A DNA stretch of 40,302 nt, taken from a virus. Its lineage: Duplodnaviria; Heunggongvirae; Uroviricota; Caudoviricetes. Numbering within the stretch: position 1 is the first letter of the stretch; each line of letters opens with the position of its first letter. A program made the translations under genes and the position numbers. The notes under the pieces are model-generated. The model saw nothing but the letters and a program-made list of their open reading frames with translations, was not told the DNA's origin and ran no database searches. The stretch is taken from IMG/VR virus record IMGVR_UViG_2654588006_000003; one strand, 5' to 3'. Positions 13,127-40,302 of the stretch are shown here, piece after piece.

Positions 13127-13137
13127 AGGTGTAAGAC

Positions 13138-14704: not shown

Positions 14705-14705
14705 C

Positions 14706-15755: not shown

Positions 15756-15768
15756 GTGGAGAACGAGC

Positions 15769-17977: not shown

Positions 17978-18034
17978 TATCTGCTTTAAATATATTATTA
18001 AAATATAAAAAATACTTGTTACTAATAAAATCAA

Positions 18035-18640: not shown

Positions 18641-18644
18641 TCCA

Positions 18645-18952
18645 ATGACTCAAGACTATGAACTGGTTGTGAAAGGAGTCCGTAATTTTGAGAATAAAGT
18701 TACGGTAACTGTAGCCTTACAGGACAAAGAACGCTTTGACGGTGAAATTTTTGACCTGGATGTCGCCATGGACCGTGTTGAAGGAGCTGCGCTGGAGTTT
18801 TATGAGGCAGCAGCCAGAAGGAGCGTCCGGCAAGTCTTCCTGGAAGTAGCAGAAAAATTGTCAGAAAAAGTTGAGTCTTATCTGCAGCATCAGTACTCCT
18901 TTAAGATTGAAAATCCTGCCAATAAGCACGAGCGTCCTCATCATAAATATCT

Positions 18953-18956
<4 letters not shown>
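18645..18956 (+). CDS. ydfR: YdfR-like protein (103 aa), unknown function
   Basis: ORF track; sits between holin and endolysin. Confidence 0.75.
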
Positions 18957-19980
<1,024 letters not shown>

Positions 19981-20342
19981 GGTAATATTAAATCGGAACA
20001 TTTACATCGCGGAATGTAAAATTTAAATAAAAAGGACTCTTCCATGAGCCAAAATTCCTGAAATCTTAAGGGTAAGATAAAAGGTCTTAATCAGAATGAC
20101 ACGTTTTATTAATAAATAAAGCTATTCTTTCATTGCTGTGTTTTTCTTTACAAAAGTAATCCTTGCTATGGGTGGTTAATCATGCGTTAATGGTGTTCTG
20201 GTTTGTTACAAATTTATCTGAAGCAGTCATTGTTATAATTTTATTATTTGTACCTCTTGAGATTTCCTTGTTGGTTTTTCTCTCTGATATTTTTTTTCGG
20301 ACCATTCTGCCCAAGGGCTAATTTCTTCAAAAGGTAATAATT

Positions 20343-20555
20343 ATGTCTAACAAAATGACTGGTTTAGTGAAATGGTTTAACCCTGAAAAAGGTTTTGGTT
20401 TCATCACGCCGAAAGATGGCAGCAAAGATGTGTTTGTCCATTTCTCAGCAATTCAGAGCAACGATTTCAAAACATTAACTGAGAATCAGGAAGTTGAATT
20501 TGGTATTGAGAACGGACCTAAAGGTCCTGCCGCTGTTCATGTAGTGGCGCTTTGA
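20343..20555 (+). CDS. cspI: Cold-shock protein CspI (70 aa)
   Basis: ORF track; CSD signature [23 protein letters not shown]... Confidence 0.9.
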
Positions 20556-20589
20556 GGTAGACAATATTACAAACCATATTCACTTTAGA

Positions 20590-20752
20590 TGCCCGTGTTG
20601 TCATGGTTCCCAGTATAGAACATCATCTTTTGATGTTTCTGACATGAATCCTTTCGGGGCAAAATGTATCTTTTGTAAATCAATGATGATTACATTTGAT
20701 AATATTTCACAATACTTAAATGCCAGCCGTCTGTCGTTGGATTTAAAAAAGT
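20590..20752 (+). CDS. ynfN: YnfN-like small zinc-ribbon protein; start codon unclear
   Basis: Open frame ...RCPCCHGSQYRTSSFDVSDMNPFGAKCIFCKSMMITFDNISQYLNASRLSLDLKK ending TGA 20750..20752; no in-frame ATG before codon Met-21 (20644). Symbol from memory. Confidence 0.35.
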
Positions 20753-20759
20753 GAAAATG

Positions 20760-20783
20760 AAGGCTCCTTCGGGAGCTTTTTTG
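20760..20783 (+). terminator. Rho-independent terminator
   Basis: gctcc-ttcg-ggagc stem followed by a T6 run. Confidence 0.65.
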
Positions 20784-20864
20784 CTTGGTGTCTATTCGAT
20801 GGATACTCACATACTACGGTAACATCATGAAAAAAATCATAGTTTTTTTAACTCTGAACCAGCA

Positions 20865-21056
20865 GTGGTAGTGCCAGCGATGACTGGAGTTAACACCATC
20901 ATGCGTGAATATCCAAATGGCGAAAAAACACACCTTACTGTAATGGCCGCAGGGTTTCCATCTCTGACCGGAGATCATAAAGTCATTTATGTAGCCGCGG
21001 ATCGACATGTTACTTCAGAAGAAATTCTGGAAGCAGCAATAAGGCTCTTGAGTTGA
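20865..21056 (+). CDS. Hypothetical small protein (63 aa)
   Basis: ORF track only; protein-like composition but no recognised family and weak RBS. Confidence 0.25.
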   Translation: MVVPAMTGVNTIMREYPNGEKTHLTVMAAGFPSLTGDHKVIYVAADRHVTSEEILEAAIRLLS

Positions 21057-21225
21057 TTTGATGCTATTGCATTGATAATTCAGGAAAATTCTCTTTGTCT
21101 GTTTGTGTAAAATTTAGACTATCGTATGTTGATTATTGCGATGTTTCATCTTATCTTTTACACGTTTGCACCATATAATCGACTTACTGTGTAACTGGAA
21201 AGTCATAACAGACTAAAAGAGGAAA

Positions 21226-21401
21226 TGATGAATATTGAAAACTTAAAAACAAAAGCAGAAGCAGATATTTCTGAATATATAACAAAAAAAATTATTGAAC
21301 TTAAGAAAAAGACCGGGAAAGAAGTTACCAGTATTCAGTTTACCGCACGGGAAAAAATGACGGGTCTTGAAAGCTATGATGTCAAGATTAATTTAATCTG
21401 A
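21226..21401 (+). pseudogene. gnsB: gnsB-like gene with 5' frameshift
   Basis: ATGATGAATATTGAA (MMNIE) runs into TAA after 6 codons; the GnsB-like body (...LKTKAEADISEYITKKIIELKKKTGKEVTSIQFTAREKMTGLESYDVKINLI) continues in another frame to TGA 21399..21401. Confidence 0.5.
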
Positions 21402-21552
21402 TGTATTCAATAATAAAATTTATCCATAAACCTCGTTTTTACGGGGTTTTGTTATATTTGAATGGTTCCGAATATCTAAATCACAATTGTTGATGGTTTT
21501 TATTAAACCAATGCAGTCCGGCTCAGGAGTGAGAGAAGCCGGACGTTATGGT

Positions 21553-21963
21553 TTAGCGTGGTAAGATCTGTGTAGTTTTCTGGATGCTTTCAGTAAATAG
21601 TAATGAATTATCAAAGGTATAGTAATATCTTTTTTGTTCGTGGATATTTGTAACCCACCGAAAAACTCCTGCTTTAGCAAGGTTTCTTCTGTATTCCTGA
21701 AATGTGATCTCTCTGGATTTCAGCTTATTAGAGGTCGTTTCTATAAGATGCCTATCCTTTGAAAATTTGACAGACACAATGTTTTTTAGGCCCTTTAATA
21801 ACACTGTATTATCATTTTTTAATACAATATGAACATTCTCTGTGGCTAAATAGTAAATGTAATGTGAGACATTGTGACGTTTTAGCTCAGAATAAAACCA
21901 TTGATAGTTTAAATCGTTTCGAACTTTATCAAATATTTGTTTAAAAATGACTACCTGATCCAT
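21553..21963 (-). CDS. ydfO: YdfO-like DUF1398 protein (136 aa)
   Basis: Internal ATG ([14 protein letters not shown]...) of ORF 21553..21978; sequence recognised. Confidence 0.85.
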
Positions 21964-22020
21964 AGATAAACCTTCCATGTGATATGAGGGGGCGTAGTCT
22001 GCACGATTATCTAAATTGCT

Positions 22021-22254
22021 TCAATCTGGTCTGACCTGTTTTCTGAGCAATTCAGTAATGTCACTCTTTTCTTTGTTTGCTTCAGAAGAAACTCTTTTTT
22101 CTGAGCACAGTCTCCGGCGGCAGGCTTCAATGACCCAGGCTGAGAAATTCCCGGACCCTTTTTGCTCAAGAGCGATGTTAATTTGTTCAATCATTTGGTT
22201 AGGAAAGCGGATGTTGCGGGTTGTTGTTCTGCGGGTTCTGTTCTTCGTTGACAT
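22021..22254 (-). CDS. Small ribbon-helix-helix-like DNA-binding protein (77 aa)
   Basis: ORF track; basic N-terminus then beta-strand/helix pattern (TRNIRFPNQMIEQINIALEQKGSGNFSAWVIEACRRRL); lies just upstream of cos. Confidence 0.5.
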   Translation of the reverse strand: MSTKNRTRRTTTRNIRFPNQMIEQINIALEQKGSGNFSAWVIEACRRRLCSEKRVSSEANKEKSDITELLRKQVRPD

Positions 22255-22419
22255 GAGGTTGCCCCGTATTCAGTGTCGCTGATTTGTATTGTCTGAAGTT
22301 GTTTTTACGTTAAGTTGATGCAGATCAATTAATACGATACCTGCGTCATAATTGATTATTTGACGTGGTTTGATGGCCTCCACGCACGTTGTGATATGTA
22401 GATGATAATCATTATCACT

Positions 22420-22640
22420 TTACGGGTCCTTTCCGGTGATCCGACAGGTTACGGGGCGGCGACCTCGCGGGTTTTCGCTATTTATGAAAATTTTCCGGTT
22501 TAAGGCGTTCCGTTCTTCTTCGTCATAACTTAATGTTTTTATTTAAAATACCCCCTGAAAAGAAAGGAAACGACAGGTGCTGAAAACGAGCTTTTGGGCC
22601 TCTGTCGTTTCCTTTCTCTGTTTTTGGCCGTGGAATGAAC
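22420..22640 (+). other. Lambda-type cohesive end site (cosQ-cosN-cosB)
   Basis: Sequence ...ccgacaggttacg/GGGCGGCGACCT/cgcgggttttcgctatttatgaaaattttccgg... matches the joined lambda right and left ends; 12-nt cohesive end at 22454..22465; lies about 190 bp upstream of Nu1. Confidence 0.85.
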
Positions 22641-22641
22641 A

Positions 22642-23187
22642 ATGGAAGTCAACAAAAAGCAGCTGGCTGACATTTTCGGTGCGAGTATCCGTACCATTCA
22701 GAACTGGCAGGAACAGGGAATGCCCGTTCTGCGAGGCGGTGGCAAGGGTAATGAGGTGCTTTATGACTCTGCCGCCGTTATAAGATGGTATGCCGAAAGG
22801 GATGCTGAAATTGAGAACGAAAAGCTGCGCCGGGAAGTTGAAGAACTGCGGCAGGCCAGCGAGGCAGATCTCCAGCCAGGGACTATTGAGTACGAACGCC
22901 ATCGACTTACGCGTGCGCAGGCCGACGCACAGGAACTGAAGAATGCCAGAGACTCCGCTGAAGTGGTGGAAACCGCATTCTGTACTTTCGTGCTGTCGCG
23001 GATCGCAGGTGAAATTGCCAGTATTCTCGACGGGATCCCCCTGTCGGTGCAGCGGCGTTTTCCGGAACTGGAAAACCGACATGTTGATTTCCTGAAACGG
23101 GATATCATCAAAGCCATGAACAAAGCAGCCGCGCTGGATGAACTGATACCGGGGTTGCTGAGTGAATATATCGAACAGTCAGGTTAA
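22642..23187 (+). CDS. nohA: Terminase small subunit, lambda Nu1-type (181 aa)
   Basis: ORF track; MEVNKKQLADIFGASIRTIQNWQEQGMPVLRGGGKGNEVLYDSAAV... near-identical to lambda Nu1 as recalled; overlaps A by 26 nt as in lambda. Confidence 0.95.
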   Translation: MEVNKKQLADIFGASIRTIQNWQEQGMPVLRGGGKGNEVLYDSAAVIRWYAERDAEIENEKLRREVEELRQASEADLQPGTIEYERHRLTRAQADAQELKNARDSAEVVETAFCTFVLSRIAGEIASILDGIPLSVQRRFPELENRHVDFLKRDIIKAMNKAAALDELIPGLLSEYIEQSG

Positions 23188-25087
23188 CAGGCTGCGGCAT
23201 TTTGTCCGCGCCGGGCTTCGCTCACTGTTCCGGCCGGAGCCACAGACCGCCGTTGAATGGGCGGATGCCAATTACTATCTCCCGAAAGAATCCGCATACC
23301 AGGAAGGGCGCTGGGAAACACTGCCCTTTCAGCGGGCCATCATGAATGCGATGGGCAGTGACTACGTCCGCGAGGTGAATGTGGTGAAGTCTGCCCGTGT
23401 TGGTTATTCCAAAATGCTGCTGGGTGTTTATGCCTACTTCATAGAGCATAAGCAGCGCAACACCCTTATCTGGTTGCCGACGGATGGTGATGCCGAGAAC
23501 TTTATGAAAACCCACGTTGAGCCGACCATCCGCGATATTCCGTCGCTGCTGGCGCTGGCTCCGTGGTATGGCAAAAAGCACCGGGATAACACGCTCACCA
23601 TGAAGCGTTTTTCCAATGGTCGTGGCTTCTGGTGCCTGGGCGGTAAAGCGGCAAAAAACTACCGTGAAAAGTCGGTGGATGTGGCGGGTTATGATGAACT
23701 TGCTGCCTTTGATGAGGATATTGAACAGGAAGGCTCTCCGACGTTCCTGGGCGATAAGCGTATTGAAGGCTCGGTCTGGCCAAAGTCCATCCGTGGCTCC
23801 ACGCCCAAAGTGAGAGGCACCTGCCAGATTGAGCGTGCAGCCAGTGAATCCCCGCATTTTATGCGTTTTCATGTTGCCTGCCCGCACTGCGGGGAGGAGC
23901 AGTACCTTAAATTTGGCGATAAAGAGACGCCGTTTGGCCTCAAATGGACGCCGGATGACCCCTCCAGCGTGTTTTATCTCTGCGAGCATAACGCCTGCGT
24001 CATCCGTCAGCAGGAGCTGGACTTCACTGATGCCCGTTATATCTGCGAAAAGACCGGGATCTGGACCCGTGATGGCATTCTCTGGTTTTCGTCATCCGGT
24101 GAAGAGATTGAACCGCCTGACAGCGTGACCTTTCACATCTGGACGGCGTACAGCCCGTTCACCACCTGGGTGCAGATTGTCAAAGACTGGATGAAGACGA
24201 AAGGGGATACGGGAAAACGTAAAACCTTCGTGAACACCACGCTCGGTGAGACGTGGGAAGCGAAAATCGGTGAACGTCCGGATGCTGAAGTGATGGCAGA
24301 GCGGAAAGAGCATTATTCAGCGCCCGTTCCTGACCGTGTGGCTTACCTGACCGCCGGTATCGACTCCCAGCTGGATCGCTACGAAATGCGCGTTTGGGGA
24401 TGGGGGCCGGGTGAGGAAAGCTGGCTGATTGACCGGCAGATTATTATGGGCCGCCACGACGATGAACAGACGCTGCAGCGTGTGGATGAGGCCATCAATA
24501 AAACCTATACCCGCCGGAATGGTGCAGAAATGTCGGTATCCCGTATCTGCTGGGATACTGGCGGGATTGACCCTACCATTGTGTATGAACGCTCGAAAAA
24601 ACATGGGCTGTTCCGGGTGATCCCCATTAAAGGGGCATCCGTCTACGGTAAGCCGGTGGCCAGCATGCCACGTAAGCGAAACAAAAACGGGGTTTACCTT
24701 ACCGAAATCGGTACGGATACCGCGAAAGAGCAGATTTATAACCGCTTCACACTGACGCCGGAAGGGGATGAACCGCTTCCCGGTGCCGTTCACTTCCCGA
24801 ATAACCCGGATATTTTTGATCTGACCGAAGCGCAGCAGCTGACTGCTGAAGAGCAGGTCGAAAAATGGGTGGATGGCAGGAAAAAAATACTGTGGGACAG
24901 CAAAAAGCGACGCAATGAGGCGCTCGACTGCTTCGTTTATGCGCTGGCGGCGCTGCGCATCAGTATTTCCCGCTGGCAGCTGGATCTCAGTGCACTGCTG
25001 GCGAGCCTGCAGGAAGAGGATGGTGCAGCAACCAACAAGAAAACACTGGCAGATTACGCCCGTGCCTTATCCGGAGAGGATGAATGA
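23162..25087 (+). CDS. A: Terminase large subunit, lambda gpA-type (641 aa)
   Basis: ORF track; length and sequence ([43 protein letters not shown]...) match lambda A. Confidence 0.95.
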
Positions 25088-26448
25088 CGCGACAGGAAGA
25101 ACTTGCCGCTGCCCGTGCGGCACTGCATGACCTGATGACAGGTAAACGGGTGGCAACGGTACAGAAAGACGGGAAAATCCTGCAGGCAGATTACAACACG
25201 CTGATGGCGGCGGCGAAAAAGGACTATGAAGCGACGCTGAAAAAGCCGAAACAGTCCGGCGTGAAGGTGTCTGCGGGCGATCGTCAGGAAGACAGTGCTC
25301 ATGCTGCCCTGCTGACGCTTCAGGCTGAACTCCGGACGCTGGAGAAGCATGCCGGAGCAAATGAGAAAATCAGCCAGCAGCGCCGGGATTTGTGGAAGGC
25401 GGAGAGTCAGTTCGCGGTACTGGAGGAGGCGGCGCAACGTCGCCAGCTGTCTGCACAGGAGAAATCCCTGCTGGCGCATAAAGATGAGACGCTGGAGTAC
25501 AAACGCCAGCTGGCTGCACTTGGCGACAAGGTTACGTATCAGGAGCGCCTGAACGCGCTGGCGCAGCAGGCGGATAAATTCGCACAGCAGCAACGGGCAA
25601 AACGGGCCGCCATTGATGCGAAAAGCCGGGGGCTGACTGACCGGCAGGCAGAACGGGAAGCCACGGAACAGCGCCTGAAGGAACAGTATGGCGATAATCC
25701 GCTGGCGCTGAATAACGTCATGTCAGAGCAGAAAAAGACCTGGGCGGCTGAAGACCAGCTTCGCGGGAGCTGGATGGCAGGCCTGAAGTCCGGCTGGAGT
25801 GAGTGGGAAGAGAGCGCCACGGACAGTATGTCGCAGGTAAAAAGTGCAGCCACGCAGACCTTTGATGGTATTGCACAGAATATGGCGGCGATGCTGACCG
25901 GCAGTGAGCAGAACTGGCGCAGCTTCACCCGTTCCGTGCTGTCCATGATGACAGAAATTCTGCTTAAGCAGGCAATGGTGGGGATTGTCGGGAGTATCGG
26001 CAGCGCCATTGGCGGGGCTGTTGGTGGCGGCGCATTCGCGTCAGGCGGTACAGCCATTCAGGCCGCTGCGGCGAAATTCCATTTTGCAACCGGAGGATTC
26101 ACAGGAACCGGCGGCAAATATGAGCCAGCGGGGATTGTTCACCGTGGTGAATTTGTCTTCACGAAGGAGGCAACCAGCCGGATTGGCGTGGGGAATCTCT
26201 ACCGGCTGATGCGCGGCTATGCCACCGGTGGTTATGTCGGTACACCGGGCAGTCTGGCTGACAGCCGGTCGCAGGCGTCCGGGACGTTTGAGCAGAATAA
26301 CCATGTGGTGATTAACAACGACGGCACGAACGGGCAGATAGGTCCGGCTGCTCTGAAGGCGGTGTATGACATGGCCCGCAAGGGTGCCCGTGATGAAATT
26401 CAGACACAGATGCGTGATGGTGGCCTGTTCTCCGGAGGTGGACGATGA
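25084..26448 (+). CDS. In-frame fusion of head-tail joining protein W N-terminus (about 30 aa) to tape-measure protein H C-terminal part (about 424 aa)
   Basis: Starts [30 protein letters not shown] (lambda W start, overlapping A stop), then continues as a Gln/Ala-rich tape-measure-like sequence ending GGLFSGGGR with ATGA overlap to M, as at the lambda H/M junction. Confidence 0.8.
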
Positions 26449-26774
26449 AAACCTTCCGCTGGAAAGTGAAACCCGGTATGGATGTGGCTTCGGCCCCTTC
26501 TGTAAGAAAGGTGCGCTTTGGTGATGGCTATTCCCAGCGAGCGCCTGCCGGGCTGAATGCCAACCTGAAAACGTACAGCGTGACGCTTTCTGTCCCCCGT
26601 GAGGAGGCCACGGTACTGGAGTCGTTTCTGGAAGAGCACGGTGGCTGGAAATCCTTTCTGTGGACGCCGCCTTATGAGTGGCGGCAGATAAAGGTGACCT
26701 GCGCAAAATGGTCGTCGCGGGTCAGTATGCTGCGTGTTGAGTTCAGCGCAGAGTTTGAACAGGTGGTGAACTGA
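26445..26774 (+). CDS. M: Tail tip protein M (109 aa)
   Basis: ORF track; [16 protein letters not shown]... matches lambda M; overlaps the H-derived ORF stop. Confidence 0.95.
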
Positions 26775-27472
26775 TGCAGGATATCCGGCAGGAAACACTG
26801 AATGAATGCACCCGTGCGGAGCAGTCGGCCAGCGTGGTGCTCTGGGAAATCGACCTGACAGAGGTCGGTGGAGAACGTTATTTTTTCTGTAATGAGCAGA
26901 ACGATAAAGGTGAGCCGGTCACCTGGCAGGGGCGACAGTATCAGGCGTATCCCATTCAGGGGACGGGATTTGAACTGAACGGCAAAGGCAGTGCTGCCCG
27001 TCCGACACTGACGGTTTCTAACCTGCACGGCATGGTCACCGGGATGGCGGAAGATCTGCAGAGTCTGGTCGGCGGAACGGTGGTCCGGCGTAAGGTTTAC
27101 GCCCGTTTTCTGGATGCGGTGAACTTCGTCAACGGAAACAGTGACGCCGATCCGGAGCAGGAGGTGATCAGCCGCTGGCGCATTGAGCAGTGCAGCGAAC
27201 TGAGCGCGGTGAGTGCCTCTTTTGTACTGTCCACGCCGACGGAAACGGACGGCGCTGTTTTTCCGGGACGTATCATGCTGGCCAACACCTGCACCTGGAC
27301 CTATCGCGGCGATGAGTGCGGTTATCACGGTCCGGCGGTCGCGGATGAATATGACCAGCCAACGTTCGATATCACGAAGGATAAATGCAGCAAATGCCTG
27401 AGTGGCTGTAAGTTTCGCAATAACGTCGGCTCCCTTTTCGGGTTCCTTTCCCTTAAAAAGCTTTCCCAGTAA
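26774..27472 (+). CDS. L: Tail tip protein L (232 aa)
   Basis: ORF track; [42 protein letters not shown]... matches lambda L; C-terminal Cys cluster. Confidence 0.95.
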   Translation: MQDIRQETLNECTRAEQSASVVLWEIDLTEVGGERYFFCNEQNDKGEPVTWQGRQYQAYPIQGTGFELNGKGSAARPTLTVSNLHGMVTGMAEDLQSLVGGTVVRRKVYARFLDAVNFVNGNSDADPEQEVISRWRIEQCSELSAVSASFVLSTPTETDGAVFPGRIMLANTCTWTYRGDECGYHGPAVADEYDQPTFDITKDKCSKCLSGCKFRNNVGSLFGFLSLKKLSQ

Positions 27473-27476
27473 TCCC

Positions 27477-28220
27477 ATGACAGAGACAGAATCAGCGATT
27501 CTGGCGCACGCCCTGCGATGTGCGCCAGCGGAGTCGTGCGGCTTCGTGGTGAGAGCGCCGGAGGGGGAAAGATATTTTCCCTGCGTGAATATTTCCGGTG
27601 AGCCGGAGGATTATTTCCGGATGGCTCCGGAGGACTGGCTGCAGGCAGAGATGCAGGGTGAGATTGTGGCGCTGGTCCACAGCCACCCCGGTGGTCTGCC
27701 CTGGCTGAGTGAGGCCGACCGGCGGCTGCAGGTGCAGAGTGATTTGCCGTGGTGGCTGGTCTGCCGTGGGGAGATTCATAAATTCCGCTGTGTGCCGTAT
27801 CTCACCGGGCGGCGCTTTGAGCACGGGGTGACGGACTGTTACACGCTGTTCCGGGATGCTTACCATCTGGCGGGGATTGAGATGCCGGATTTTCATCGCG
27901 AGGATGACTGGTGGCGTCACGGTCAGAATCTCTATCTGGATAATCTGGAGGCCACAGGGCTGTATCAGGTGCCGTTGTCAGCGGCGCAGCCGGGCGATGT
28001 GCTGCTGTGCTGTTTTGGTTCATCGGTGCCGAATCATGCCGCCATTTACTGCGGCGACGGCGAGCTGCTGCACCATATTCCTGAACAACTGAGCAAACGA
28101 GAGAGGTATACCGACAAATGGCAGCGACGCACACACTCCCTCTGGCGTCACCGGGCATGGCACGCATCTGCCTTTACGGGGATTTACAACGATTTGGCCG
28201 CCGCATCGACCTTCGTGTGA
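27477..28220 (+). CDS. K: Tail tip assembly protein K (MPN/JAB plus NlpC/P60-like domains)
   Basis: ORF 27402..28220 with ATG at 27477 (MTETESAIL); HSHPGG JAB motif and Cys/His peptidase-like motif; an alternative internal start at about 27618 (MAPEDW) would give the 199-aa form. Confidence 0.9.
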   Translation: MTETESAILAHALRCAPAESCGFVVRAPEGERYFPCVNISGEPEDYFRMAPEDWLQAEMQGEIVALVHSHPGGLPWLSEADRRLQVQSDLPWWLVCRGEIHKFRCVPYLTGRRFEHGVTDCYTLFRDAYHLAGIEMPDFHREDDWWRHGQNLYLDNLEATGLYQVPLSAAQPGDVLLCCFGSSVPNHAAIYCGDGELLHHIPEQLSKRERYTDKWQRRTHSLWRHRAWHASAFTGIYNDLAAASTFV

Positions 28221-28787
28221 AAACGGGGGCCGAAGCCATCCGGGCGCTGGCCACGCAGCTTCCGTCGTTTCGTCAGAAACTGAGCGACGGCTGGTATCAG
28301 GTACGCATTGCCGGGCGTGATACAGGTGAAACGGAATATCAGCCCGTCTTATGAACCGCTGGCAAATGGTGCTGTGATCCATATCGTGCCGGGTCTGGCA
28401 GGAGCCAAAAGTGGCGGTGTATTCCAGATTGTCCTGGGAGCAGCCTTTCAGGCGGGCTCAGTCGTGACGGCCGGAGCCGCCGTTGCAGCATGGGGGGCAG
28501 CCATTGGGGCCGGTGGTATGTCATGCATCATGTTTTCTCTGGGTGCCAGTATGGTACTTGGTGGTGTGGCGCAGATGCTGGCACCGAAAGCCAGAACTCC
28601 CAGTACACAGACAACGGATAACGGCAAGCAGAACACGTATTTCTCCTCACTGGATAACATGGTTGCCCAGGGCAATGTTCTGCCCGTTCTGTACGGTGAA
28701 ATGCGCGTGGGGTCGCGGGTGGTATCTCAGGAAATCAGCACGGCAGACGAAGGGGACGGTGGTCAGGTTGTGGTGATTGGTCGCTGA
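28118..28787 (+). pseudogene. I: Tail tip assembly protein I, split by a frameshift
   Basis: N-terminal 68 residues in ORF 28118..28354 (MAATHTLPLASPGMARICLYGDLQRFGRRIDLRVKTGAEAIRALATQLP...), C-terminal about 139 residues in a different frame in ORF 28308..28787 (...GAVIHIVPGLAGAKSGGVFQIVLGAA...VVVIGR); total span 670 nt, not a multiple of 3. Confidence 0.8.
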
Positions 28788-28847
28788 TGCAAAACATTTT
28801 ATGTGAAACCGCCTGCGGGCGGTTTTGTCGTTTATGGAGCGTGAGGA

Positions 28848-31800
28848 ATGGGTAAAGGCAGCAGTAAGGGGCATACCCCGCGCGAAGCGAAGGACAACCT
28901 GAAGTCCACGCAGTTGCTGAGTGTGATCGATGCCATCAGCGAAGGGCCGGTTGAAGGTCCGGTGGATGGATTAAAAAGCGTGCTGCTGAACAGTACGCCG
29001 GTGCTGGACAGTGAGGGGAATACCAATATCTCCGGTGTCACGGTGGTGTTCCGGGCCGGTGAGCAGGAGCAGACTCCGCCGGAGGGATTTGAATCCTCCG
29101 GCTCCGAGACGGTGCTGGGTACGGAAGTGAAATACGACACGCCGATCACCCGCGCCATCACGTCGGCAAACATCGACCGACTGCGCTTTACCTTCGGTGT
29201 GCAGGCACTGGTGGAAACCACCTCAAAGGGGGACCGGAATCCGTCGGAAGTTCGCCTGCTGGTTCAGATACAGCGTAATGGTGGCTGGGTGACGGAAAAA
29301 GACATCACCATTAAGGGCAAAACCACCTCGCAGTATCTGGCCTCGGTGGTGGTGGATAACCTGCCGCCGCGCCCGTTTAATATCCGGATGCGCAGAATGA
29401 CGCCGGACAGCACCACAGACCAGCTGCAGAACAAAACGCTCTGGTCGTCATACACCGAAATCATCGATGTGAAACAGTGCTACCCGAACACGGTACTGGT
29501 CGGCGTACAGGTGGATTCGGAGCAGTTCGGCAGCCAGCAGGTGAGCCGTAATTATCATCTGCGCGGGCGTATTCTGCAGGTGCCGTCGAATTATAACCCG
29601 CAGACGCGGCAATACAGCGGTATCTGGGACGGAACGTTTAAACCGGCATACAGCAACAACATGGCCTGGTGTCTGTGGGATATGCTGACCCACCCGCGCT
29701 ACGGCATGGGGAAACGTCTTGGTGCGGCAGATGTGGATAAATGGGCGCTGTATGTCATCGGCCAGTACTGCGACCAGTCGGTGCCGGACGGCTTTGGCAG
29801 CACGGAGCCGCGCATCACCTGTAATGCCTGGCTGACCACACAGCGCAAGGCGTGGGATGTGCTCAGTGATTTCTGCTCGGCGATGCGCTGTATGCCGGTA
29901 TGGAACGGGCAGACGCTGACGTTCGTGCAGGACCGACCGTCGGATAAGGTGTGGACCTATAACCGCAGTAATGTGGTGATGCCGGATGATGGCGCGCCGT
30001 TCCGCTACAGCTTCAGCGCCCTGAAGGACCGCCATAATGCCGTTGAGGTGAACTGGATTGACCCGGATAACGGCTGGGAGACGGCGACAGAGCTTGTGGA
30101 GGACACGCAGGCCATTGCCCGTTACGGTCGTAATGTCACGAAGATGGATGCCTTTGGCTGTACCAGCCGGGGGCAGGCACACCGAGCCGGGCTGTGGCTG
30201 ATTAAAACGGAGCTGCTGGAAACGCAGACCGTGGATTTCAGCGTCGGCGCAGAAGGGCTTCGCCATGTACCGGGCGATGTTATTGAAATCTGTGATGATG
30301 ACTATGCCGGTATCAGCACCGGTGGTCGTGTGCTGGCGGTGAACAGCCTGACCCGGACGCTGACGCTTGACCGTGAAATCACGCTGCCATCCTCCGGTAC
30401 CACGCTGATAAGCCTGGTTGACGGAAGTGGCAATCCGGTCAGCGTGGAGGTTCAGTCCGTCACCGACGGCGTGAAGGTGAAAGTGAGCCGTGTTCCTGAC
30501 GGTGTTGCTGAATACAGCGTATGGGGGCTGAAGCTGCCGAGGCTGCGCCAGCGACTGTTCCGCTGCGTGAGTATCCGTGAGAACGACGACGGCACGTATG
30601 CCATCACCGCCGTGCAGCATGTGCCGGAAAAAGAGGTCATCGTGGATAACGGGGCGCACTTTGACGGCGAACAGAGTGGCACGGTGAATGGTGTCACGCC
30701 GCCAGCGGTGCAGCACCTGACCGCAGAAGTCACTGCAGACAGCGGGGAATACCAGGTGCTGGCCCGCTGGGACACGCCGAAGGTGGTGAAGGGCGTGAGC
30801 TTCCTGCTTCGCCTGACCGTGGCAGCGGATGACGGCAGTGAGCGGCTGGTCAGCACGGCCCGGACGACGGAAACCACTTACCGCTTCACACAACTGGCGC
30901 TGGGGAACTACAGGCTGACAGTCCGGGCGGTAAATGCGTGGGGGCAGCAGGGCGATCCGGCGTCGGTATCGTTCCGGATTGCCGCACCGGCAGCGCCGTC
31001 GCGGATTGAGCTGACGCCGGGCTATTTTCAGATAACCGCCACGCCGCATCTTGCGGTTTATGATCCGACGGTACAGTTTGAGTTCTGGTTCTCGGAAAAG
31101 CGGATTGCGGATATCAGGCAGGTTGAAACCACAGCACGCTATCTTGGCACGGCGCTGTACTGGATAGCCGCCAGTATCAATATCAGGCCGGGCCATAATT
31201 ATTATTTTTACGTTCGCAGTGTGAACACCGTTGGCAAATCGGCATTCGTGGAGGCTGTTGGTCAGCCGAGTGATGACGCATCCGGCTATCTGGATTTTTT
31301 CAAAGGCGAGATAGGGAAAACCCATCTGGCTCAGGAGCTGTGGACGCAGATTGATAACGGTCAGCTTGCGCCTGACCTGGCTGAAATCAGGACATCCATT
31401 ACGGATGTCAGCAATGAAATCACACAGACCGTCAATAAGAAACTGGAAGACCAGAGTGCAGCGATCCAGCAGATACAGAAGGTTCAGGTTGATACAAATA
31501 ATAATCTGAACAGCATGTGGGCTGTGAAGCTGCAGCAGATGCAGGACGGACGCCTTTATATTGCGGGTATCGGTGCCGGTATTGAGAACACCCCCGACGG
31601 CATGCAGAGTCAGGTGCTGCTGGCGGCAGACAGGATTGCGATGATTAATCCTGCAAATGGCAACACAAAACCGATGTTTGTTGGTCAGGGTGATCAGATA
31701 TTCATGAATGAAGTGTTCCTGAAATATCTGACGGCTCCCACCATTACCAGCGGCGGTAATCCTCCTGCATTTTCCCTGACACCGGACGGAAAGCTGACCG

Positions 31801-32327
31801 CTAAAAATGCAGATATCAGTGGCAGTGTGAATGCGAACGCCGGGACGCTCAACAACGTTACGATAAATGAAAACTGTCAGATTAAAGGGAAACTGTCAGC
31901 CAACCAGATTGAAGGCGATATTGTCAAAACAGTGGGTAAGGCTTTCCCGCGGGACTCCCGGGCACCGGAGCGGTGGCCATCAGGGACCATTACCGTCAGG
32001 ATTTATGACGATCAGCCGTTTGACCGGCAGATTGTTATTCCGGCGGTGGCATTCAGCGGTGCTAAACATGAGCGGGAGAATAACGATATTTACTCCTCAT
32101 GCCGCCTGATAGTGAAGAAAAATGGTGCTGAAATTTATAACCGTACCGCGCTGGATAATACGCTGATTTACAGTGGTGTTATTGATATGCCAGCTGGTCA
32201 CGGCCACATGACGCTGGAGTTTTCGGTGTCAGCATGGCTGGTAAATGACTGGTATCCCACAGCAAGTATCAGCGATTTGCTGGTTGTGGTGATGAAGAAA
32301 GCCACCGCAGGCATCAGTATCAGCTGA
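28848..32327 (+). CDS. J: Central tail fibre / host specificity protein J (1159 aa)
   Basis: ORF track; N-terminal and central regions match lambda J as recalled ([34 protein letters not shown]...); fibronectin-like repeats; C-terminal part appears divergent. Confidence 0.95.
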
Positions 32328-32394: not shown

Positions 32395-32994
32395 ATGCGT
32401 AAAGTTTGTGCAGCCATTTTGTCCACAGCCATCTGTCTGGCCGTATCCGGTGCGCCTGCATGGGCGTCTGAGCAGCAGGCCACACTGAGCGCAGGGTATC
32501 TTCATGCCCGTACGAACGCTCCCGGCAGCGATAATCTGAACGGGATTAACGTGAAATACCGTTATGAGTTTACGGACACGCTGGGGCTGATTACGTCATT
32601 CAGTTATGCCAACGCTGAAGATGAGCAAAAAACGCATTACAGCGATACCCGCTGGCATGAAGATTCCGTGCGTAACCGCTGGTTCAGCGTAATGGCGGGG
32701 CCGTCTGTGCGCGTGAATGAATGGTTCAGCGTGTATGCGATGGCGGGTGTGGCTTACAGCCGTGTGTCGACTTTCTTCGGGGATTATCTCCGCGTAACTG
32801 ACAACAAGGGGAAAACGCACGATGTGCTGACCGGAAGTGATGACGGTCGCCACAGCAACACGTCTCTGGCGTGGGGGGCTGGCGTGCAGTTTAACCCGAC
32901 CGAATCCGTGGCCATTGATATTGCTTATGAAGGCTCCGGCAGTGGTGACTGGCGCACTGACGGTTTCATCGTGGGTGTCGGTTATAAATTCTGA
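32395..32994 (+). CDS. lom: Lom-like outer membrane beta-barrel protein (Ail/Lom family), 199 aa
   Basis: ORF track; signal peptide [24 protein letters not shown] and C-terminal ...GVGYKF beta-barrel terminus; position after J as in lambda. Confidence 0.9.
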
Positions 32995-33019
32995 TTAGCC
33001 AGGTAACACAGTGTTATGA

Positions 33020-33049
33020 CAGCCCGCCGGCTCAGGCGGGCTTTTTTGT
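33020..33049 (+). terminator. Rho-independent terminator after lom
   Basis: agcccgcc-ggctca-ggcgggct stem followed by a T6 run. Confidence 0.7.
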
Positions 33050-33058
33050 GGGGTGAAT

Positions 33059-36000
33059 ATGGCAGTAAAGATTTCAGGTGTACTGAAAGACGGCACAGGA
33101 AAACCGGTACAGAACTGCACAATCCAGCTGAAAGCAAAACGTAACAGCACCAGGGTGGTGGTGAACACGCTGGCCTCAGAAAATCCGGATGAAGCCGGGC
33201 GTTACAGCATGGACGTTGAGTACGGTCAGTACAGCGTTATTCTGTTGGTGGAGGGATTCCCGCCGTCACATGCCGGGACCATCACCGTGTATGAAGATTC
33301 TCAACCCGGTACGCTGAATGATTTTCTCGGTGCCATGACGGAGGATGATGCCCGTCCGGAGGCACTGCGCCGTTTTGAACTGATGGTGGAAGAGGTGGCG
33401 CGTAACGCGTCCGCGGTGGCACAGAACACGGCAGCCGCGAAGAAGTCAGCCAGCGATGCCGGCACATCAGCCCGTGAGGCGGCAACCCATGCGACTGATG
33501 CTGCAGGCTCAGCACGTGCAGCCAGCACATCAGCCGGGCAGGCCGCGACGTCGGCTCAGTCAGCGTCTTCCAGCGCAGGAACGGCATCAACAAAGGCTAC
33601 TGAAGCATCAAAAAGTGCTGCCGCTGCAGAGTCCTCAAAAAGCGCGGCGGCTACCAGTGCCGGTGCGGCGAAAAAGTCAGAAACGAATGCCGCAGCGTCA
33701 CAACAATCAGCAGCCACTTCTGCATCCACCGCGACTACGAAAGCGTCAGAAGCTGCCACCTCAGCCCGGGATGCGGCGGCCTCAAAAGAAGCAGCGAAAT
33801 CATCAGAAACGAACGCATCCTCGAGCGTCAGTAGCGCAGCTTCCTCGGCAACGGCGGCAGCAAATTCCGCGAAGGCGGCAAAAACGTCCGAGACGAACGC
33901 CAGGTCTTCTGAGACGGCAGCGGGACAGAGCGCCTCAGCTGCGGCAGGCTCAAAAACAGCGGCTGCGTCGTCTGCCAGTACCGCGTCAACAAGTGCCGGG
34001 CAGGCCTCAGCCAGTGCCACCGCCGCCGGAAAATCGGCAGAAAGTGCCGCATCGTCTGCTTCAACAGCCACAACGAAGGCTGGCGAAGCCACTGAACAGG
34101 CCAACGCAGCAGCGAGGTCAGCTTCCGCAGCGAAGACATCCGAAACGAACGCGAAAGCGTCGGAAACCAGCGCAGAATCCTCAAAAACGGCTGCCGCATC
34201 GTCCGCCAGTTCGGCGGCGTCATCGGCCTCATCGGCGTCTGCTTCAAAAGATGAGGCGACCAGACAGGCATCAGCAGCGAAAGGCAGCGCCACGACGGCA
34301 TCCACGAAGGCAACAGAGGCTGCTGGCAGTGCGACGGCGGCAGCACAGAGCAAGAATACGGCAGAATCCGCAGCAACGCGCGCCGAGACAGCAGCTAAAC
34401 GGGCAGAGGATATTGCATCCGCCGTGGCGCTTGAGGATGCGAGCACGACGAAAAAGGGGATAGTACAGCTCAGCAGTGCGACCAACAGTACGTCTGAAAC
34501 GCTGGCGGCAACGCCAAAGGCAGTAAAATCAGCCTATGACAATGCAGAGAAACGTCTGCAGAAAGACCAGAACGGCGCTGATATACCCGATAAGGGACGC
34601 TTCCTGAACAACATTAACGCGGTCAGTAAAACAGACTTTGCTGATAAGCGTGGTATGCGTTATGTGCGGGTTAACGCTCCTGCAGGTGCAACATCTGGAA
34701 AATATTACCCTGTTGTTGTTATGCGTTCTGCTGGCTCAGTAAGCGAACTGGCATCAAGGGTCATTATCACCACGGCAACGCGAACCGCAGGCGATCCGAT
34801 GAATAACTGCGAGTTTAACGGATTTGTTATGCCTGGTGGCTGGACTGACAGGGGGCGTTATGCTTATGGAATGTTCTGGCAATATCAAAACAATGAACGA
34901 GCCATCCACTCAATAATGATGAGTAATAAGGGCGATGATTTGCGCTCTGTGTTCTATGTTGATGGCGCTGCTTTCCCTGTTTTTGCGTTTATCGAAGATG
35001 GCCTGTCAATATCCGCACCTGGTGCTGATCTCGTTGTTAATGATACGACCTATAAGTTTGGGGCAACAAATCCAGCGACTGAATGTATCGCGGCGGACGT
35101 TATCCTTGATTTTAAGAGTGGGCGTGGTTTTTATGAGTCTCATTCGTTAATCGTTAACGATAATTTGTCGTGCAAAAAACTTTTTGCCACAGACGAAATT
35201 GTAGCGCGTGGTGGTAATCAGATTCGAATGATAGGTGGGGAGTATGGTGCATTATGGCGTAATGATGGCGCTAAAACTTACCTGCTGCTTACCAATCAAG
35301 GTGATGTTTATGGTGGCTGGAATACATTAAGACCGTTTGCTATTGATAACGCAACCGGCGAACTGGTTATTGGAACCAAACTGTCCGCAAGTCTGAACGG
35401 TAATGCATTAACAGCAACAAAGCTGCAAACGCCAAGACTGGTTTCTGGTGTTGAGTTTGATGGTTCCAGAGATATTACTTTAACCGCCGCGCATGTGGCT
35501 GCTTTTGCCAGAAGGGCAACGGATACATATGCCGATGCGGATGGTGGCGTTCCCTGGAATGCCGAATCAGGTGCTTACAATGTCACCCGCTCTGGCGACA
35601 GCTATATTCTGGTTAACTTCTATACCGGAGTCGGAAGTTGCCGGACCTTGCAGATGAAGGCGCATTACAGAAATGGTGGTCTGTTCTACCGTTCTTCAAG
35701 AGACGGTTATGGTTTTGAGGAAGACTGGGCAGAAGTTTATACCTCGAAAAATCTTCCACCAGAAAGCTACCCAGTCGGCGCACCAATCCCGTGGCCATCA
35801 GATACCGTTCCGTCTGGTTATGCCCTGATGCAGGGGCAGGCTTTTGACAAATCTGCTTACCCGAAACTTGCAGCCGCTTATCCGTCAGGCGTGATCCCTG
35901 ATATGCGTGGCTGGACGATTAAGGGCAAACCTGCCAGTGGTCGGGCCGTATTGTCTCAGGAACAGGACGGCATTAAATCTCATACCCACAGCGCCAGCGC

Positions 36001-36421
36001 ATCCAGTACAGATTTGGGGACGAAAACCACATCGTCGTTTGATTACGGCACTAAATCCACGAATAACACCGGGGCACATACACACAGTGTGAGCGGCTCT
36101 ACAAACTCGGCTGGAGCACACACACACTCACTAGCCAACGTGAACACGGCTAGTGCTAACTCCGGTGCTGGTAGTGCATCAACAAGATTGTCTGTTGTGC
36201 ATAATCAAAACTATGCAACATCATCTGCTGGCGCACATACCCACTCACTGTCCGGCACTGCTGCAAGCGCAGGTGCACACGCGCATACTGTCGGTATTGG
36301 TGCTCATACGCACTCCGTTGCGATTGGTTCACATGGACACACCATCACCGTTAACGCTGCTGGTAACGCGGAAAACACCGTCAAAAACATCGCATTTAAC
36401 TATATTGTGAGGCTTGCATAA
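33059..36421 (+). CDS. stfQ: Side tail fibre protein Stf (about 1120 aa)
   Basis: ORF track 33053..36421 with ATG at 33059; long Ala/Ser/Thr-rich fibrous repeat region; C-terminal His-rich GAHTHS repeats; followed by tfa. Confidence 0.9.
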
Positions 36422-36996
36422 TGGCATTCAGAATGAGTGAACAACCACGGACCATAAAAATTTATAATCTGCTGGCCGGAACTAATGAATTTATTGGTGA
36501 AGGTGATGCATATATTCCGCCTCATACAGGTCTGCCAGCAAACAGTACCGATATTGCACCGCCAGATATTCCGGCTGGCTTCGTGGCTGTTTTCAACAGT
36601 GATGAGTCATCGTGGCATCTCGTTGAAGATCATCGGGGTAAAACGGTTTATGACGTGGCTTCCGGCAACGCGTTATTTATTTCTGAACTCGGTCCGTTAC
36701 CGGAAAATGTTACCTGGTTATCGCCGGAAGGGGAGTTTCAGAAGTGGAACGGCACAGCCTGGGTGAAGGATACGGAAGCAGAAAAACTGTTCCGGATCCG
36801 GGAGGCGGAAGAAACAAAAAACAACCTGATGCAGGTAGCCAGTGAGCATATTGCGCCGCTTCAGGATGCTGCAGATCTGGAAATTGCAACGGAGGAAGAA
36901 ATCTCGTTGCTGGAAGCATGGAAAAAGTATCGGGTATTGCTGAACCGTGTTGATACGTCAACTGCACAGGATATTGAATGGCCAGCACTGCCGTAG
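36421..36996 (+). CDS. tfaQ: Tail fibre assembly protein Tfa (191 aa)
   Basis: ORF track; start overlaps stf stop; sequence recognised as the TfaR/TfaQ family. Confidence 0.9.
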
Positions 36997-39018: not shown

Positions 39019-40302
39019 ATGGATTTCCAGTTATATTCGCTCGACGCAGCGTTGGTGTTTCATGAAATATTTTTTCCTGAATCATCAACGGCAATGGCGT
39101 TAATTTTGGCAATGGGAACCTACGGTGCAGGTTATGTGGCGCGTATTGTCGGAGCATTTATTTTCGGCAAAATGGGCGACAGAATAGGGCGTAAAAAAGT
39201 GCTCTTTATTACCATCACCATGATGGGGATCTGTACCACCTTAATTGGTGTGTTACCGACCTATGCACAGATTGGTGTTTTTGCCCCCATCTTGCTGGTG
39301 ACGCTGCGTATTATTCAGGGGTTGGGTGCAGGTGCGGAAATTTCCGGTGCCGGTACGATGCTGGCGGAATATGCACCAAAAGGTAAGCGCGGAATTATCT
39401 CCTCATTTGTAGCTATGGGAACTAACTGCGGAAGCTTGAGCGCAACGGCAATCTGGGCCTTTATGTTCTTCATTCTCAGTAAAGAGGAACTGCTGGCGTG
39501 GGGATGGCGTATACCGTTCCTGGCGAGCGTTGTCGTGATGGTCTTTGCTATCTGGTTACGTATGAATCTGAAAGAAAGCCCGGTCTTTGAGAAGGTTAAT
39601 GACAGCAACCAACCCACAGCAAAACCTGCACCTGCTGGTAGCATGTTCCAGAGCAAATCCTTCTGGCTGGCAACAGGGCTGCGTTTTGGTCAGGCGGGTA
39701 ACTCCGGGTTAATTCAGACTTTCCTTGCAGGCTATTTAGTGCAGACGTTATTGTTTAACAAAGCAATTCCAACAGATGCATTGATGATTAGTTCGATTCT
39801 CGGCTTTATGACCATTCCGTTCCTTGGTTGGTTATCCGATAAAATTGGTCGCCGGATCCCGTATATTATTATGAATACCTCCGCGATTGTGCTGGCATGG
39901 CCAATGCTTTCTATCATTGTAGATAAAAGCTATGCCCCGAGCACCATTATGGTTGCACTGATTGTGATTCATAACTGTGCGGTGCTGGGATTATTTGCTC
40001 TGGAAAACATTACCATGGCAGAAATGTTCGGCTGTAAAAACCGCTTTACCCGGATGGCTATTTCTAAAGAAATTGGTGGTCTTATCGCTTCCGGTTTTGG
40101 TCCTATCCTGGCGGGTATTTTCTGCACCATGACGGAATCCTGGTATCCGATCGCCATTATGATCATGGCATATTCAGTAATTGGTTTAATCTCTGCGCTG
40201 AAAATGCCAGAGGTGAAAGACCGTGATTTAAGTGCGCTGGAAGACGCTGCGGAAGATCAACCGCGTGTTGTAAGAGCTGCGCAACCTTCCAGAAGTCTGT
40301 AA
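39019..40302 (+). CDS. ydfJ: MFS metabolite:H+ symporter family transporter, N-terminally truncated (host gene at prophage junction)
   Basis: ORF track, 427 aa; multiple TM segments and MFS motif GKMGDRIGRKK; by alignment logic to ProP-like transporters it starts inside TM1, with an in-frame stop directly upstream (39013..39015). Confidence 0.85.
   Translation: MDFQLYSLDAALVFHEIFFPESSTAMALILAMGTYGAGYVARIVGAFIFGKMGDRIGRKKVLFITITMMGICTTLIGVLPTYAQIGVFAPILLVTLRIIQGLGAGAEISGAGTMLAEYAPKGKRGIISSFVAMGTNCGSLSATAIWAFMFFILSKEELLAWGWRIPFLASVVVMVFAIWLRMNLKESPVFEKVNDSNQPTAKPAPAGSMFQSKSFWLATGLRFGQAGNSGLIQTFLAGYLVQTLLFNKAIPTDALMISSILGFMTIPFLGWLSDKIGRRIPYIIMNTSAIVLAWPMLSIIVDKSYAPSTIMVALIVIHNCAVLGLFALENITMAEMFGCKNRFTRMAISKEIGGLIASGFGPILAGIFCTMTESWYPIAIMIMAYSVIGLISALKMPEVKDRDLSALEDAAEDQPRVVRAAQPSRSL

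Follow-up and report, generated by a model that had tools for sequence, protein, structure and literature searches.

Qin is a lambdoid prophage that integrates at the 5' end of the Escherichia coli gene ydfJ, and its length varies from 11 to 97 kb across 189 strains, in a general picture of prophage degradation (PMC6379469). The annotation of K-12 likewise places the Qin site at ydfJ, and the Qin of K-12 MG1655 (b1543-b1579) is itself a deletion derivative with a fusion-type junction: nohA runs into a truncated stfQ, 21.1 kb are missing in comparison with the Qin of strain ATCC 8739, and the junction has a microhomology of 2 bp. Deletions between direct repeats by short-homology (illegitimate, RecA-independent) recombination are known in E. 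coli; two ancestral repeats are reduced to one, with no signature of an IS or of site-specific recombination. In phage lambda, the head-tail adaptor gpW (PF02831; PDB 1HYW) has two helices (residues 4-22 and 37-54), a beta-hairpin (23-36) and a portal-binding C-arm (55-68), and the tape measure protein gpH (PDB 8IYK chain H) ends in a C-terminal helix (H 818-842) resting on the gpI trimer of the tail tip (PMC10721106).

The Qin prophage of isolate 789 and its relatives

We have analysed a stretch of 40,302 nucleotides (the window) that contains the lambdoid prophage Qin, located in ydfJ, of isolate 789 (CP010315), an E. coli of the chicken-pathogenic group APEC with type O78:H19 ST88. A Qin-like identity had been proposed in the original prediction and was borne out by the ydfJ site, the gene set and the collinearity with the Qin prophages of A12 and ATCC 8739. 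The truncated ydfJ left at the right end of the prophage (Table 1) is what integration at the 5' end of this gene leaves behind, and the region (39019-40302) aligns at 99.4% to the ydfJ region of A12 and also to the truncated ydfJ of ATCC 8739, located downstream of pinQ-ydfK-ynfT. The A12 segment bears the characteristic Qin genes (dicA/dicC, relBE, hokD, cspB/F/I, ydfT (Q-like), essD/rrrQ/rzpQ, nohA and pinQ). Identity to A12 is 99.89% in the 19.2 kb that precede the junction described below (window 5999-25172) and 99.6% in the 500 bp that follow it, so that both flanks of the junction are Qin DNA.

Left of the junction, Qin prophages in which the late module is intact (ATCC 8739, A12 and about 335 complete genomes) have 99.4-99.9% identity with the window; to the right they are collinear with it, and their L-K-I alleles are 94-97% identical to those of the window. 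The K-12 Qin occupies the same ydfJ site and shares dicA/C, relBE, hokD, cspB/F/I, nohA and pinQ, but the deletion in isolate 789 is independent and smaller (9.1 kb, from W to H), has a microhomology of 9 bp and, unlike that of K-12, has left terminase A, M, L, K, J, lom, a full-length stf, tfa and an intact integrase ORF. The best matches to the right flank, OY754453 and A25, were discarded as models of the ancestor because they are prophages at other sites, and the Qin of ATCC 8739 was used instead. Phage satellites of the PICI type are islands of about 10-15 kb that have their own int/alpA/primase-replication module and packaging-redirection genes and are not collinear with a full prophage. 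Such an identity, considered in view of the cos and terminase kept without capsid genes, was rejected for the present element, which measures about 39 kb and, apart from the 9.1-kb gap, is collinear with a full Qin at identities of at least 99% over most of its length.

Structure of the fusion gene and the missing interval

Pairwise alignments agree with the original prediction that the ORF following terminase A is an in-frame fusion, in which some 30 residues of W are followed by the C-terminal part of H. The 454 aa correspond to lambda W residues 1-27, a K-D-G common to both proteins and lambda H residues 430-853. Residues 1-30 of the chimera are identical to those of lambda W, and residues 31-454 differ from lambda H 430-853 by four substitutions. 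At the nucleotide level, the W-derived segment differs from lambda W by a single base (this variant, a G, is also present in the W of ATCC 8739), and the H-derived segment is 99.3% identical to the H of the ATCC 8739 Qin and 98.9% to that of lambda. The translational signals have been preserved at both ends. The ATG overlaps the stop codon of terminase A (GGATGAATGACG), an ATGA-coupled start that comes together with the Shine-Dalgarno sequence of W, and the stop codon overlaps the start of M (CGATGAAA), the ATGA overlap that had also been predicted, with the coupling to M kept as well.

Table 1. Features of the late region and right end of the prophage, in coordinates of the window
Feature	Position	Strand	Remarks
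cos region	22454..22641	+	cosN GGGCGGCGACCT at 22454-22465, plus cosB; collinear with lambda from position 1
nohA / Nu1, terminase small subunit	22642..23187	+	intact; 181/181 aa aligned, 98.9% identical to lambda Nu1
Terminase large subunit A	23162..25087	+	intact; 641 aa, 99.2% identical to lambda A
W'-'H chimeric ORF	25084..26448	+	454 aa; GenBank AJE55969.1, "hypothetical protein AC789_1c17150"
W-derived segment	25084..25163	+	W codons 1-27 up to the second base of codon 27; the repeat starts with the third
Deletion junction	25164..25172	+	single kept copy of the direct repeat GAAAGACGG; exact 9-bp microhomology
H-derived segment	25173..26448	+	tape measure residues 430-853; Tape_meas_lam_C domain and C-terminal tip-docking helix
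M, tail tip protein	26445..26774	+	intact; 109 aa, 99.1% identical to lambda M
L, tail tip protein	26774..27472	+	intact ORF, divergent allele; 232 aa, 93.1% identical to lambda L
K (C40 peptidase family)	27477..28220	+	intact ORF; length equals that of K annotated in A12
I, tail tip assembly/plug protein	28118..28787	+	frameshifted, with 1-bp deletions at two places (near 28328 and 28343); frame open for 78 codons before a stop
J, central tail fibre / host specificity protein	28848..32327	+	intact ORF; 1159 aa
lom-like, stf, tfa (side tail fibre module)	32395..36996	+	ORFs; collinear with A12 annotation
Truncated ydfJ, host gene at Qin right end	39019..40302	+	integration-site marker; N-terminus missing

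At the domain level, the chimera is a complete member of neither the gpW nor the gpH family. A Pfam search with the chimera matched gpW at profile positions 1-30 of 66 and Tape_meas_lam_C (PF09718) at aa 228-302, and gave no match to the N-terminal TMP_2 domain of H (PF06791). The complete gpW fold (two-helix bundle, beta-hairpin and C-arm) is not reached, as H sequence takes over from residue 31 on, and helix 2 and the C-arm are missing together with the second strand of the hairpin. On the H side, the match to PDB 8iyk_H covers residues 425-853; the full lambda-type architecture is likewise not there, H 430-853 alone being present, without TMP_2 and about half of the ruler length.

Between the same flanks, the intact Qin copies of ATCC 8739 and A12 hold the full module, W-B-C-D-E-FI-FII-Z-U-V-G-T-H. 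Measured on lambda, the missing interval is 9,106 bp long; the Qin prophages of ATCC 8739 and A12 give 9,101 bp and about 9,121 bp, respectively. These values are in line with the predicted loss of some 9 kb comprising all portal, capsid and tail-shaft genes. When the whole 40.3-kb window was searched by tblastn, none of the lambda proteins B, C, D, E, FI, FII, Z, U, V, G and T had a match, leaving no head or tail-shaft genes elsewhere in the element. The annotation of the Qin of APEC isolate 789 should describe it as defective in the making of heads and tail tubes.

The junction and its microhomology

In a three-way alignment, the window is of the W type up to a 9-mer, GAAAGACGG, and of the H type beyond it. 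The original prediction had placed the junction near 25173 and proposed a search for microhomology there. The 9-mer exists in both parental genes, at positions 2713 (W) and 11819 (H) of lambda and at 10944 (W) and 20045 (H) of the ATCC 8739 Qin (L005), with identical codon phase in either pair. The repeat is located in W codons 27-30 and H codons 426-429, and at the junction its first base closes the preceding codon, the codons for K and D follow, and it ends two bases into the codon for G. The two 60-nt flanks of the ATCC 8739 Qin show one mismatch each to the window, and removing the 9,101-bp interval between its two 9-mers recreates the window. Lambda and the ATCC 8739 Qin have the repeat at both ends of the interval and the window retains exactly one copy, the arrangement that a microhomology deletion leaves. 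At the junction the flanks are unbroken W and H sequence, and neither a mobile element nor an att site nor any long stretch of homology was found there.

Since a homology-independent random join would have a junctional identity of at least 9 bp with a probability of about 3e-5, the microhomology is not a chance feature. The reading frame is another matter. Its conservation had been considered notable, but an in-frame outcome has a prior of about 1 in 3, and here the fusion is in frame because both W and H read the repeat in one and the same phase, as K-D-G. In A12 and in another relative (L003) the H copy reads GAAGGACGG rather than GAAAGACGG; if the ancestor had an H allele of this type, the exact homology at the crossover would have been just 5 bp (8/9 overall). 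The longest string common to W and H is an 11-mer, CAGGAAGAACT, that encodes RQEEL in both; it was dismissed as a sign of W-H homology, as about 0.12 such 11-mers are expected by chance.

Distribution of the junction

The exact protein was found in one genome, that of isolate 789, and the junction was absent from the 5,426 complete E. coli genomes of the RefSeq collection searched, of which CP010315 is not part. A 34-base junction pattern had no matches in contigs of species-representative genomes and none in metagenome contigs (GCAACGGTACAGAAAGACGGGAAAATCCTGC is an example of a k-mer spanning the junction), and it could be used as a lineage marker for the ST88 clone. The 2.3-kb region appeared in one piece in no phage record and in no complete E. 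coli genome, ruling out that the ORF is a single native protein. Both flanks were found in one place in 335 of the 5,426 complete genomes, the best-ranked with a span about 9.1 kb longer than the query, and the reconstructed pre-deletion H allele was 100% identical in 550 complete-genome records.

Origin and function of the fusion

The best explanation is a strain-specific, microhomology-mediated deletion of about 9.1 kb in Qin, the product of which is probably a functionless remnant; we give this reading a probability of roughly 0.87. The ancestor would have been a Qin with the whole late module of the lambda type (Nu1-A-W-B-C/Nu3-D-E-FI-FII-Z-U-V-G-T-H-M-L-K-I-J). One intramolecular event of illegitimate recombination, probably by replication slippage or short-homology annealing, would have joined the W copy and the H copy of the 9-mer, taking out the interval and leaving one copy of the repeat, and the in-frame join would have given the W(1-30)-H(430-853) protein, with the coupled start of W and the coupled stop of H. 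We detected no mechanistic difference from the known direct-repeat deletions of E. coli. The W-H deletion is ordinary prophage decay, in agreement with the published picture for these elements (PMC6379469), and provides a clean example of how a cryptic prophage originates, in a single deletion between short repeats that an intact relative allows to be retraced exactly. Against this explanation speak the presence of the junction in a single genome, the differing H copy of A12 and L003, and mosaic patches near the junction.

The mosaic patches found right of the junction (25700-26450, 26950-27950 and 28200-28700) show that the region has also swapped DNA with other lambdoid phages and may have had a more complex history. 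The junction itself could have come from a cross between Qin and another lambdoid prophage or an infecting lambda-like phage, the left side joined illegitimately at the 9-mer and the right side by homologous recombination further along in the tail genes. Similarity to A12 indeed falls to 77.6-96% in 25700-26450 and to 90-93% in 26950-27700, the best database matches of the H'-M-L stretch are prophages located elsewhere (next to bio and at torT), and isolate 789 contains seven phage-related regions (PMC4313913). A closer Qin relative was also sought through the divergent L-K-I patch, and none of the 5,426 genomes exceeded 94.1% identity over its full length. We nevertheless consider such a cross unlikely. 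Mosaic patches in tail genes are ubiquitous and need not be tied to the deletion, the DNA immediately right of the junction hardly differs from that of the A12 Qin, the H' segment as a whole is as close to the ATCC 8739 Qin H as stated above and has the same junction allele, and the gene order is that of Qin on both sides, out to ydfJ.

As for the product, the chimera is most likely a functionless gene remnant, judging by what it has lost: the second helix and the portal-binding C-arm of W and the N-terminal TMP_2 half of H are missing, in a prophage without tube, chaperone, terminator, portal or capsid genes. A protein kept for a function might dock into tail-tip complexes (those of its own M-L-K-J or of other lambdoid phages) and poison their assembly or act as a shortened tape measure. 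The intact ORF, the translational signals of W and the coupling to M would suit such a role, as would the Tape_meas_lam_C domain and the C-terminal helix that in lambda contacts the gpI trimer, but it seems very unlikely for a singleton fusion with no conservation, in which the partner gene I is frameshifted, the N-terminal domain of H and the G/GT chaperone genes are lost, and the open frame is what a third of such deletions would have anyway. Even harder to credit is action in trans, by which the chimera would be expressed from the Qin late operon and the C-terminal half of gpH would enter tip initiator complexes, so that tails would abort or come out shorter; the chimera would in that case be an assembly poison encoded by the prophage (a form of superinfection interference) against co-resident or superinfecting lambda-like phages, born of a single deletion. 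With the chimera taken as a remnant, AJE55969.1 should be annotated as a W/H fusion pseudogene instead of a hypothetical protein, and the significance beyond annotation is small, becoming wider only in the unlikely case of interference with other lambdoid phages.

An artefact of assembly or cloning in CP010315, the real chromosome having an intact module, would fit the single occurrence, the position of this genome outside the RefSeq collection and the several similar lambdoid prophages of the assembly, which could confuse PHRAP, but it is hardly credible for a Sanger shotgun with 1.5-4 kb inserts and manual Gap4 finishing (PMC4313913), in which a clone of at most 4 kb cannot give rise to a 9.1-kb deletion, for a 9-bp repeat far too short for assembly collapse and for a junction with precisely one copy of the microhomology, as is characteristic of biological deletions.

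Neighbouring genes and further lesions

The original prediction had the prophage keeping cos, terminase and the tail-tip and fibre genes. This held for the terminase, the A gene of which has two nucleotide differences from the A12 Qin copy, but not for gene I, which is frameshifted, nor entirely for cos, where R3 of cosB has lost one base. R3, R2 and R1 of cosB are the binding sites of TerS (PMC4669245). In the window the R3 copy reads CGTTCCGTTCT in place of CGTTTCCGTTCT, which motif comparison places as a 1-bp deletion at about 22508, and comparison with A12 and with ATCC 8739 shows the indel in either case. In gene I, lambda I aa 1-69 and aa 58-223 match the window in two different frames, and the frameshift also shows in the alignment with A12, lambda and L003. 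A further lesion, the loss of one base, affects ynfN. The J gene has a nucleotide identity of 99.5% to the J of the A12 Qin. An Rfam scan of both strands of 22000-29000 gave no match, and antisense ORFs over the region were dismissed, being without counterpart in any annotated relative. The divergence of L and K was considered as decay or sequencing error, and both were rejected: the substitutions favour the third codon position, with a rough dN/dS of 0.15-0.2.

Structure of the chimeric ORF

The ORF that follows the terminase large subunit gene in this Qin prophage is a real W-H fusion, built as the original prediction had described it. Alignment to lambda (NC_001416) showed that residues 1-30 are those of gpW 1-30, without differences, and that residues 31-454 correspond to gpH 430-853 with four substitutions. 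Within this single product Pfam detected parts of two families, Tape_meas_lam_C and gpW (profile positions 1-30 of 66), with no match to TMP_2 (the N-terminal domain of H), and the sequence matches in the PDB were the lambda tape measure (8iyk_H, residues 425-853) and gpW (1hyw). The ATG shares bases with the stop codon of the gene for the 641-aa terminase large subunit (GGATGAATGACG), and the TGA overlaps the start codon of M (CGATGAAA).

Coordinates of the features in the window
Feature	Position	Strand	Description
Exonuclease ORF	1659-4166	-	835 aa, beside int/xis/ydfD at the Qin left end
Homopolymer change	10974		C4 to C5 vs relatives, within region A12 annotates as partial ISNCY transposase
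ynfN indel	20843 (20836-20850)		T8 to T7
First repeat after cosN	22506-22516		one T lost
W-H chimeric ORF	25084..26448	+	454 aa, ORF listing
11-mer common to W and H	25093-25103		CAGGAAGAACT
9-bp repeat at junction	25164-25172		GAAAGACGG
M start codon	26445
L-K-I stretch	26900-28900		flanks 99-100% identical to A12 Qin
Tail-tip gene I	28118-28787		pseudogene; lambda I aa 1-69 matched in one frame, aa 58-223 in another
Homopolymer change	38875		T8 to T6 vs relatives, intergenic DNA upstream of 'ydfJ (host gene with its 5' part cut off by Qin)

Microhomology at the junction had been suggested as a check, and the crossover indeed lies inside a 9-bp exact repeat, as seen from the sequences of lambda W (...GTACAGAAAGACGGACGA...), lambda H (...GCACTGAAAGACGGGAAAATC...) and the window (...GTACAGAAAGACGGGAAAATC...). 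The repeat (lambda 2713-2721 and 11819-11827) covers K28-D29-G30 of W and K427-D428-G429 of H. Its codon phase is identical in both genes, which is the whole reason why the fusion is in frame, an outcome with a prior of about 1 in 3. Since junctional identity of at least 9 bp is computed for only ~3e-5 of homology-independent joins, the microhomology is meaningful. Short repeats are plentiful substrates, with 2,029 direct 9-mer pairs in lambda 1-19000. Another in-phase string, an 11-mer (lambda 2642-2652 and 11796-11806) encoding (R)QEEL in both W and H, precedes the KDG 9-mer in each gene. With ~0.12 such W/H 11-mers expected from chance alone, this match is probably a coincidence; recombination between its two copies would have given another in-frame deletion.

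State before the deletion

Many E. coli genomes match the left end of the window (integrase, excisionase, ydfD and exonuclease) at 100% identity. The exonuclease gene is split by an IS66-family element in some genomes (cS76a, WS0115A). A 24-kb query across the junction found both flanks in one place in 335 complete genomes, the best-ranked of which span ~33.1 kb, that is, ~9.1 kb over the query. The annotated order in A12, one of the full-module relatives, is dicA-dicC...relBE-hokD...ydfT-cspF-cspB-essD-rrrQ-rzpQ-cspI...nohA-terminase, and after the terminase W-portal-protease-D-E-FI-FII-Z-U-V-G-T-H-M-L-K-I-J-lom-stf-tfa-pinQ-ydfK-ynfT-'ydfJ. This region is the Qin prophage at its known insertion site, the 5' end of ydfJ (PMC6379469; K-12 annotation). 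Identity to A12 is 99.89% over window 5999-25172 and 99.6% over the 500 bp right of the junction.

In A12, the 9-bp repeat has one mismatch in its H copy (GAAGGACGG). A reconstructed pre-deletion H allele (the exact 9-mer plus the right flank of the window) was present at 100% identity in 550 complete-genome records, including the Qin of ATCC 8739, which is also in ydfJ, has the full module and carries both 9-mers, 9,101 bp apart. The 60 nt on either side of these 9-mers differ from the window by one mismatch each, and therefore removing the interval between them from this intact Qin-like prophage, the kind of comparison proposed at the outset, reproduces the window. The deletion amounts to 9,106 bp in lambda coordinates and ~9,121 bp in those of A12. 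The Z homologue of the full-module ATCC 8739 Qin is annotated as frameshifted (16205-16781 in that region), and apparently complete Qin copies may be defective too.

When every lambda late protein was searched against the window by tblastn, Nu1, A, W (1-31), H (427-853), M, L, K, I, J and lom were found, and B, C, D, E, FI, FII, Z, U, V, G and T left no trace anywhere in the 40.3 kb. The predicted loss of the portal, capsid and tail-shaft genes is thus borne out: no head or tail-shaft genes were found elsewhere in the element, and none of the phage records or complete E. coli genomes searched has the ORF as a single native gene.

Origin of the junction

The junction was most likely created when the two 9-bp direct repeats recombined illegitimately in a single intramolecular event, through either replication slippage or post-break annealing. 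Alternatively, Qin may have been joined illegitimately to a different lambdoid phage and have undergone homologous recombination to the right of that join. This would fit the mosaic patches at 25700-26450, 26950-27950 and 28200-28700, the best database matches of H'-M-L (H' being the H-derived part of the chimera), which are in prophages at other loci, and the L-K-I stretch, for which no full-length match in 5,426 complete E. coli genomes exceeds 94.1% identity. However, the DNA directly flanking the junction is Qin-type on both sides, and the differences in L and K fall preferentially at third codon positions. Lambdoid tail genes are normally mosaic, and the mosaicism near the junction need not be tied to the deletion. 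Because of the third-position bias, L and K represent a foreign but selected allele, the product of neither decay nor error, and the L-K-I stretch is a functional allele that has so far escaped sampling and was acquired through mosaic exchange.

The genome of APEC O78:H19 ST88 isolate 789 (O78-9; CP010315) was obtained by Sanger shotgun of 1.5-4 kb plasmid inserts, PHRAP assembly and Gap4 finishing (PMC4313913). An assembly or cloning artefact is unlikely, given that a 9.1-kb deletion cannot form inside a clone of at most 4 kb, that a 9-bp repeat cannot collapse an assembly and that a precise junction with one copy of the microhomology left is the mark of a biological event.

The exact 454-aa sequence appears once in the protein collection (AJE55969.1, 'hypothetical protein AC789_1c17150'). 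The junction as a continuous piece was not found in 50,697 phage records or 5,426 complete E. coli genomes, nor was its 34-nt pattern in the species-representative genome or metagenome collections. Because it is missing from all of these, the junction is a strain- or clone-specific allele.

Qin lengths of 11 to 97 kb have been recorded across 189 strains (PMC6379469). The reference K-12 Qin is likewise a deletion derivative, in which, compared with that of ATCC 8739, the 21.1 kb between the start of A and the interior of stf are missing; at its junction, where nohA reads into a truncated stfQ, the microhomology is only 2 bp (TA) (1,635,8xx in K-12 MG1655 vs 8950 and 30062 in the ATCC 8739 region). 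Compared with it, the W-H deletion is smaller; it arose independently by the same process and is unusually clean, another case of the known decay of Qin by deletion and no new kind.

Consequences for the prophage and further lesions

The prophage cannot make the portal, scaffold/protease, decoration or major capsid and head-completion proteins, nor the tail tube, terminator or activator and the G/GT chaperones. The chimera retains the ribosome-binding context of W and its coupling to A, and therefore would be translated if late transcription occurred. Its gpW part comprises only helix 1 and one hairpin strand; in the virion structure, ring formation and portal binding by gpW need helix 37-54 and the C-arm 55-68 (PMC10721106). 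The gpH part is the distal half only; it still has the C-terminal coiled coil (818-842), which rests on the gpI trimer within the tip lumen (PMC10721106). We rate the chimera as a probable functionless remnant. That it acts in trans as an 'assembly poison' is conceivable but unsupported, the allele being a singleton and its partner gene I being broken.

The original interpretation is supported overall, with minor qualifications. It had considered cos and the tail-tip genes to be kept; the cos site and M, L, K and J (the genes by tblastn) are present, but gene I is frameshifted and the R3 site of cosB lacks 1 bp. Gene I has lost one base at each of two sites 16 bp apart (AATTATC to AATATC near 28328, CTTAATG to CTTATG near 28343), a net change of -2 that shifts the frame and brings in a stop once 78 codons have been read. 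Of the three CGTTTCC(G/T)TTCT repeats that follow cosN, the first (CGTTTCCGTTCT repeat; the R3 site of cosB, bound by TerS, PMC4669245) has TT where lambda, A12 and ATCC 8739 have TTT, a loss that may impair cos recognition. The 5' end of ynfN (MKKIIVFF...) is also frameshifted in comparison with A12 and the ATCC 8739 Qin. Given the Sanger data, the gene I, R3 and ynfN changes, seen in this one genome only, are probably real.
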